Shown: positions 10,532 to 10,665 of the stretch, in pieces
Position numbering within the stretch: position 1 is the first letter of the stretch
Layout: the number at the start of each line of letters is the position of its first letter
Assembly: GCF_964213995.1 (NCBI RefSeq)
Contig: NW_027590156.1
Coordinates: 124,001 to 188,000 of the forward strand
Length of the DNA: 64,000 bases
Reading direction: 5' to 3'
Origin: Mustelus asterias
Taxonomy: Eukaryota
The notes under the pieces: generated by a model
What the model was told of the DNA's origin: nothing
Database searches by the model: none
What the model saw: the letters and a program-made list of their open reading frames with translations, nothing else
Program-made: the position numbers and the translations under genes

Positions 10532-10665
10532 CCACAATGCAGTTCACAGATCTGATTCAGTAAGAGGAGGTGAGAGTGCCTTTGTCGGTTTTTGTACGGG
10601 CTGACTGTGCCTCTGTAGCAGTGTGGGGCTCAGCGCACAGTGATACACGGCAGAGTCAGAGACAT
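10532..10665 (-). other. Inverted copy of the V2 3' end with its 23-RSS, inside the CR1
   Basis: 131/134 identical to the reverse complement of 13600-13733; heptamer 10619-10625, nonamer 10587-10595. Confidence 0.9.

Follow-up and report, generated by a model that had tools for sequence, protein, structure and literature searches.

We think it somewhat probable (about 0.57) that microhomology-mediated template switching, in the course of germline repair of a break or fork, copied the 3′ end of the V gene segment V2 and its recombination signal (RSS) into a LINE that was old by then, probably with V2 itself as the template. The insert most likely records a real and clean event, though one ordinary in kind. 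All positions refer to the window, by which we mean the whole 64-kb stretch of DNA that was analyzed (Table 1).

The insert (10532-10665) is identical to the reverse complement of 13600-13733 at 131 out of 134 positions, the same figure as in the preliminary description of this stretch, and the match ends abruptly at both edges. The two sequences differ by three substitutions, all of them transitions, and no indels; the changes lie at 10575, 10585, and 10600, which correspond to donor positions 13690, 13680, and 13665, respectively. Self-BLAST of the 64 kb at 92% identity or higher returned two pairs in all, namely, the insert with V2 and one 40-bp pair. Translation and an RSS scan agree with the earlier claim that the YHC codons, the full heptamer-spacer-nonamer, and 55 bp of flank were copied. 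Scoring of the signal, as the preliminary description had suggested, found the heptamer CACACTG at 10625-10619 on the minus strand (six out of seven consensus positions), a 23-bp spacer, and the nonamer ACAAAAACC at 10595-10587, also on the minus strand (nine out of nine). The scan used the consensus RSS motifs, which are concordant with those printed in the available parts of PMC2193808 and PMC8950363.

Table 1. Positions of the insert, its host LINE, and the neighboring V segments in the window.
Feature	Position	Strand	Basis
V1 pseudogene split by host LINE	9420..12310	+	Leader from 9420, V exon 11963-12271, 23-RSS 12272-12310
Host: 5′-truncated, decayed CR1-type LINE	9595..11962	-	RVT_1, E 3e-20
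Left junction: 3-bp exact microhomology plus gapped microhomeology to donor flank 13731-13744	10522..10534		BLAST extension to 10522/13744
Inverted copy of V2 3′ end, RSS, and flank (the insert)	10532..10665	-	131/134 identity; empty LINE form in 4/4 runs
Bases common to insert and LINE	10532-10534 and 10665
Non-coding flank past nonamer, 55 bp	10532..10586	-	Match to donor
Copied 23-RSS	10587..10625	-	RSS scan
Final 40 bp of V coding sequence, including YHC codons; without leader or promoter	10626..10665	-	Translation
Second element of about 190 bp inside host LINE, flanked by 16-bp direct repeats	11400..11622		Gap in LINE self-match
V2 pseudogene: one stop in leader; two stops and one frameshift in V exon	13203..13678	+	V-set matches, translations, leader stop read from sequence
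Likely donor: V2 3′ end, 23-RSS (13640-13678), and flank	13600..13733	+	Sole close match within window

The insert splits the RVT_1 frame of the LINE a few codons ahead of the FADD-type motif, and the LINE stays in register on either side. In contigs from four out of four related runs, 10534 and 10665-10668 are joined across 7 to 10 letters of LINE. Since these contigs show an empty form, we conclude that the LINE family lacks the insert and that 7 bp of LINE were lost. The preliminary description had raised the possibility that the segment belongs to the CR1 family consensus, but the joined, empty form in all four runs rules out the insert as a component of the LINE family.

At the left junction, insert and LINE overlap by 3 bp (CCA), and at the right junction, they overlap by one T (1 bp). 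The microhomeology at the left junction amounts to 12 matches per 15 columns with gaps allowed, and this anchored alignment score was equalled or exceeded by 0.2% of 20,000 random LINE-versus-V-region pairs (P about 0.002, rising to 0.004 when both junctions are allowed for). Likeness beyond the 1-bp overlap was looked for at the right junction and not found. A target duplication, a poly-A tract, and an AATAAA signal were looked for at the insert, and none was found, which rules out a retrocopy of the type that carries a poly-A or a target duplication. In contrast, the second element nested in the same LINE does have its 16-bp direct repeats. The earlier account of an interrupted reverse transcriptase region with about 3 bp of CCA microhomology, a small loss of LINE sequence, and neither target duplication nor poly-A is borne out by the CCA overlap, the 7-bp loss, and the absence of both duplication and AATAAA.

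We propose that a break in the LINE would have left a plus-strand 3′ end at CCA (10534), and that this end would have annealed to the partly matching flank past the V2 nonamer, at 13731-13744. A polymerase would then have copied about 130 nt back across the RSS into the V exon, and the new end would have rejoined the LINE at the 1-bp overlap, with the loss of 7 bp. Both copies would afterwards have drifted apart by three transitions, with the RSS as a passenger. The preliminary description had likewise proposed a germline templated insertion during break repair. Its templated origin, microhomology, and small loss are supported, while break repair is not established and is favored over LINE reverse transcription by only 2- to 10-fold.

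V2 is the best candidate donor in the window, where the next-best V end matches the insert at 62 out of 134 positions in register. The donor site is intact and continuous with V2, which marks the event as a copy and not as cut-and-paste, and V2 lies about 3 kb (2.9 kb) from the insert, a nearness that favors it as the donor. Summed contig depth over V1-V2 in the related runs is in the hundreds to thousands, versus roughly 20-50 for single nearby contigs; depth is not a copy number, but this suggests that V2-like sequence is multi-copy in relatives. Because V2 looks multi-copy in relatives, V2 as the donor is not proven. The same repair could have used a near-identical V2 paralogue outside the window, in which case 3 kb would not be the copying distance. 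We consider this unlikely. In addition to the depth over V1-V2, which hints at several copies, it draws on position 13690. Here the insert has T and V2 has C, and the three related runs that cover the site have T at 51/51, 397/429, and 96/96 of the depth. This is the single insert/V2 difference site among the rows listed (40 out of 483) for the related runs. A later change in V2, after the copying, and a different donor fit this state equally well. Two further points argue against a paralogue: landing 3 kb from a family member would be a coincidence, whereas it is expected for a local template, and insert and V2 share a G at 10618/13647, where three out of four related runs show only A. The earlier identification of V2 as the source is probable but not established; V2 is the only close match in the window, yet relatives apparently have additional V2-like copies and, at 13690, a state that is not V2's.

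In translation, the host LINE shows 43%-82% identity to proteins of birds, turtles, frogs, rays, and sharks, many of which contain endonuclease domains. From those matches, we take it to be a CR1-type element. It divides V1, which the preliminary description does not mention, separating the leader (9420) from the V exon (11963) at the start of the second exon just past the splice acceptor, and a possible 4-bp duplication (AGAT) flanks it at 9591-9594 and 11963-11966. The host is short of about 200 bp at 11147, where reference residues 389-453 are skipped, and the related-run contigs show loose ends at 11148. A younger LINE copy lies on the plus strand at 18300-19700, with no frameshifts and one stop in 1377 nt.

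The insert has the same sense as the LINE, so it is also compatible with a template switch in the course of LINE reverse transcription. In this scenario, the insert came with the LINE: the CR1 reverse transcriptase would have switched to a V2 sense transcript or exposed strand, copied ~130 nt, and switched back 7 nt on. On the minus strand, both the LINE and the insert run in the sense direction, and the CCA junction, which has the longer microhomology, is the one that plus-strand first-strand cDNA would meet first before reading the V2 sense strand. Same-sense orientation is a published mark of template-switch chimeras (available part of PMC13174262), double jumps are reported for a fungal LINE (PMC2104539), and three L1 insertions with sequence templated from nearby DNA appear in the accessible portion of PMC11702581. 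Matching orientation, however, arises half the time by chance, and arrival with the LINE requires a V transcript extending beyond the RSS in germ cells. Taken with the dating below, we find this scenario doubtful.

We dated the host because the repair and reverse-transcription routes differ in the predicted age of the insert. Host decay comprises 7 frameshifts and 5 stops over 1903 aligned nt. At 137 columns invariant in 16 relatives, the host has 8 changes, or 0.027 per site (95% range 0.012-0.051); under a 90% rule, it has 16 changes at 180 columns, or 0.042 per site. The reference comprised 16 out of 17 proteins, leaving out P0110 (decayed) as well as codons near frameshifts and alignment ends, and the frameshift rate was calibrated on three further LINE copies of the window. 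Dating of the LINE by DNA from metagenome loci was dropped, as the 80 loci kept were at most 59% identical in protein and too distant.

Combining these clocks, host decay is 0.036-0.038 per site versus 0.011 per lineage between insert and donor (P 0.02-0.03 with both copies neutral), which makes the decay of the host LINE apparently 3 to 4 times that of the insert. The Bayes factor for an insert later than its host is 8-12 if both copies were neutral. The first-exon stop of V2 (13358) is missing in four out of four related runs, so V2 was possibly functional until recently in this lineage and some past constraint on it is plausible. With V2 partly selected and 206 neutral sites, P is 0.06-0.08 and the Bayes factor about 4; with 170 neutral sites, P is 0.14-0.17 and the factor about 2; and with 131 sites, there is no age gap (factor about 1). 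P for the age gap spans 0.02 to 0.37 according to the assumed constraint on V2, and the strict amino-acid clock by itself gives P 0.16. Any gene conversion between the two copies may also have lowered the apparent age of the insert. Overall, we take the decay clocks to favor later repair over same-age arrival by a Bayes factor of 2-10, which is not proof.

We consider it very unlikely that a chimeric read or mis-join placed V2 sequence in the LINE. Independent sequence that spans a junction was not seen among the 32 pieces listed of some 309,500 from related-run contigs, which counts in favor of such an artefact. However, three transitions separate the copies, and at one of them, the insert has the state of relatives; the junctions carry a 7-bp loss and microhomeology, with the LINE in register on both sides. 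A run search by shared words returned 20 runs from 9 studies, with shares of 0.26-0.40 and none reaching half. We do not count these as evidence because a high-copy LINE is expected to give such shares. A search of metagenome contigs for the junction pattern gave zero matches and was uninformative. The three substitutions, one agreeing with relatives, also rule out a somatic event.

RAG transposition, or a RAG-cut fragment, is defined by ends at the heptamer and a short target duplication. An origin of the piece by RAG cutting or transposition in germ cells is extremely improbable, even though RAG-like rearrangement is reported in shark germ cells (PMC2193156, available portion): the heptamer-coding border is intact inside the insert, whose ends lie 40 bp within V and 55 bp past the nonamer, the donor is intact, and a target duplication is absent. 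The preliminary description had rejected RAG transposition, and we reach the same view from these features. The signals at 10625 and 12272 were also considered as a pair of transposon ends and rejected, as both are 23-type and face outward.

The insert lies within a cluster of V segments with 23-type signals that spans 9.4-27 kb and is presumably of the TCR alpha/delta type. The V-set profile gave six matches from the nine frames tested. The plus strand carries V1, V2, and V3, all of them broken, and the minus strand carries V4 and V5. The copied RSS faces opposite to V2 but the same way as V4 and V5, so the preliminary description's novelty of an opposite-pointing RSS does not hold, as these two segments of the window already point that way. 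In a PDB search with V4, the best 60 out of 5450 matches did not distinguish TCR V domains from those of antibodies, and no full-length relatives of V4 were found among 67 candidates. No strict 12-RSS or J-type signal was found within the window. V5 (25912-26187, minus strand) is 63% identical to a catshark protein, which, along with the ray and shark proteins among the close named relatives of the LINE, points to a cartilaginous fish. In the V5 region (25912-26410, minus strand), the V exon is open and is accompanied by a 23-RSS and, near 26370-26408, by an apparent leader. Of the V segments here, V5 alone looks possibly functional.

Other V-derived sequence is also present. At 24220-24352, another V 3′ end carries an RSS-like signal in which a 21-bp spacer separates the heptamer CACACTG from a consensus nonamer. 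It abuts a repeat at 22933-24219 that contains an internal inverted copy, and we regard this repeat-abutting V end as a more ordinary route to an orphan signal. Putative, weak V-like remnants (tblastn E 0.7-0.8) lie at 25580-25800 on the plus strand and 27027-27095 on the minus strand. Elsewhere in the window, an assembly gap of 161 N occupies 61644-61804.

Compared with known systems, as described in the available portions of the papers cited here, the event is most likely one more example of an already known type of mutation, in this case with an unusual passenger. Class 2 TSIPs lack target duplications and poly-A and show microdeletion and microhomology (Onozawa and Aplan, PMC5110952). The insert shares these features, along with an intact donor and a size inside the 73-414 bp of experimental insertions. 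TSIP donors are distant, whereas here the best match is 2.9 kb off, and TSIPs are human and polymorphic, whereas this insert is in a cartilaginous fish and old enough for three substitutions. MMB-TIs, which are linked to MMBIR, are inverted, use a near template, and involve microhomology or microhomeology, and human germline variants exist (PMC8421209). If V2 is the donor, the insert is likewise inverted, copied from a template close by, and marked by both microhomology and microhomeology. It differs in that its template is 3 kb off, compared with at most 100 bp for the yeast templates cited, 100 bp being the search distance of that study, and in that the right junction has an overlap of only 1 bp.

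LINE template-switch chimeras (U6/L1, PMC13174262; tripartite, PMC2104539) resemble the insert in containing a same-sense foreign piece with a short overlap at the first jump. Unlike in those chimeras, the piece here is internal, the LINE resumes 7 nt on, and the piece looks younger than the LINE; the template is the end of a V gene and not an abundant small RNA. Functional signals remote from V, D, and J segments exist (PMC2193808). Like orphan or cryptic RSSs and V-gene relics, the insert is an RSS without a usable V gene, but it is a short, traceable copy made from a genuine RSS, as opposed to a motif that arose by chance or the relic of an entire gene. Among the literature matches listed (titles and abstract openings, with few subscription journals), we found none on an RSS moved by such copying.

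On another spacer, the heptamer and nonamer pair of the copy reached 5.5 in a plasmid assay in which the consensus heptamer reached 7.6 (PMC2193808, available part), and CACACTG is the consensus heptamer of a macaque V subgroup (PMC8950363, available part). Because the same pair recombined in the plasmid assay and the heptamer matches that subgroup consensus, the copied heptamer and nonamer should work, and we predict that the copied RSS would be cleavable in vitro. Any joint from the copy would be non-productive because it has 13 codons only, without promoter or leader. The copied signal is probably without function, and its neighbors are pseudogenes. A random 131-bp piece within 5 kb holds a whole RSS at 186 out of 9869 positions (about 1.9%), so capture of the RSS needs no selection. 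We therefore do not follow the preliminary description in treating the insert as a candidate mechanism of RSS dispersal, given a single promoterless copy among pseudogenes and chance capture at ~1.9%.

On the most likely reading, the copy demonstrates that duplication of a genuine RSS can leave its gene behind, and this gives orphan signals in antigen-receptor loci one concrete origin. The finding would matter more if thymocytes contained signal ends at 10625, if further copies of this kind turned up across the locus, or if the insert had arrived with the LINE. In the last case, V genes would be transcribed through the RSS in cartilaginous-fish germ cells, and LINEs would have a route to acquire working recombination signals.
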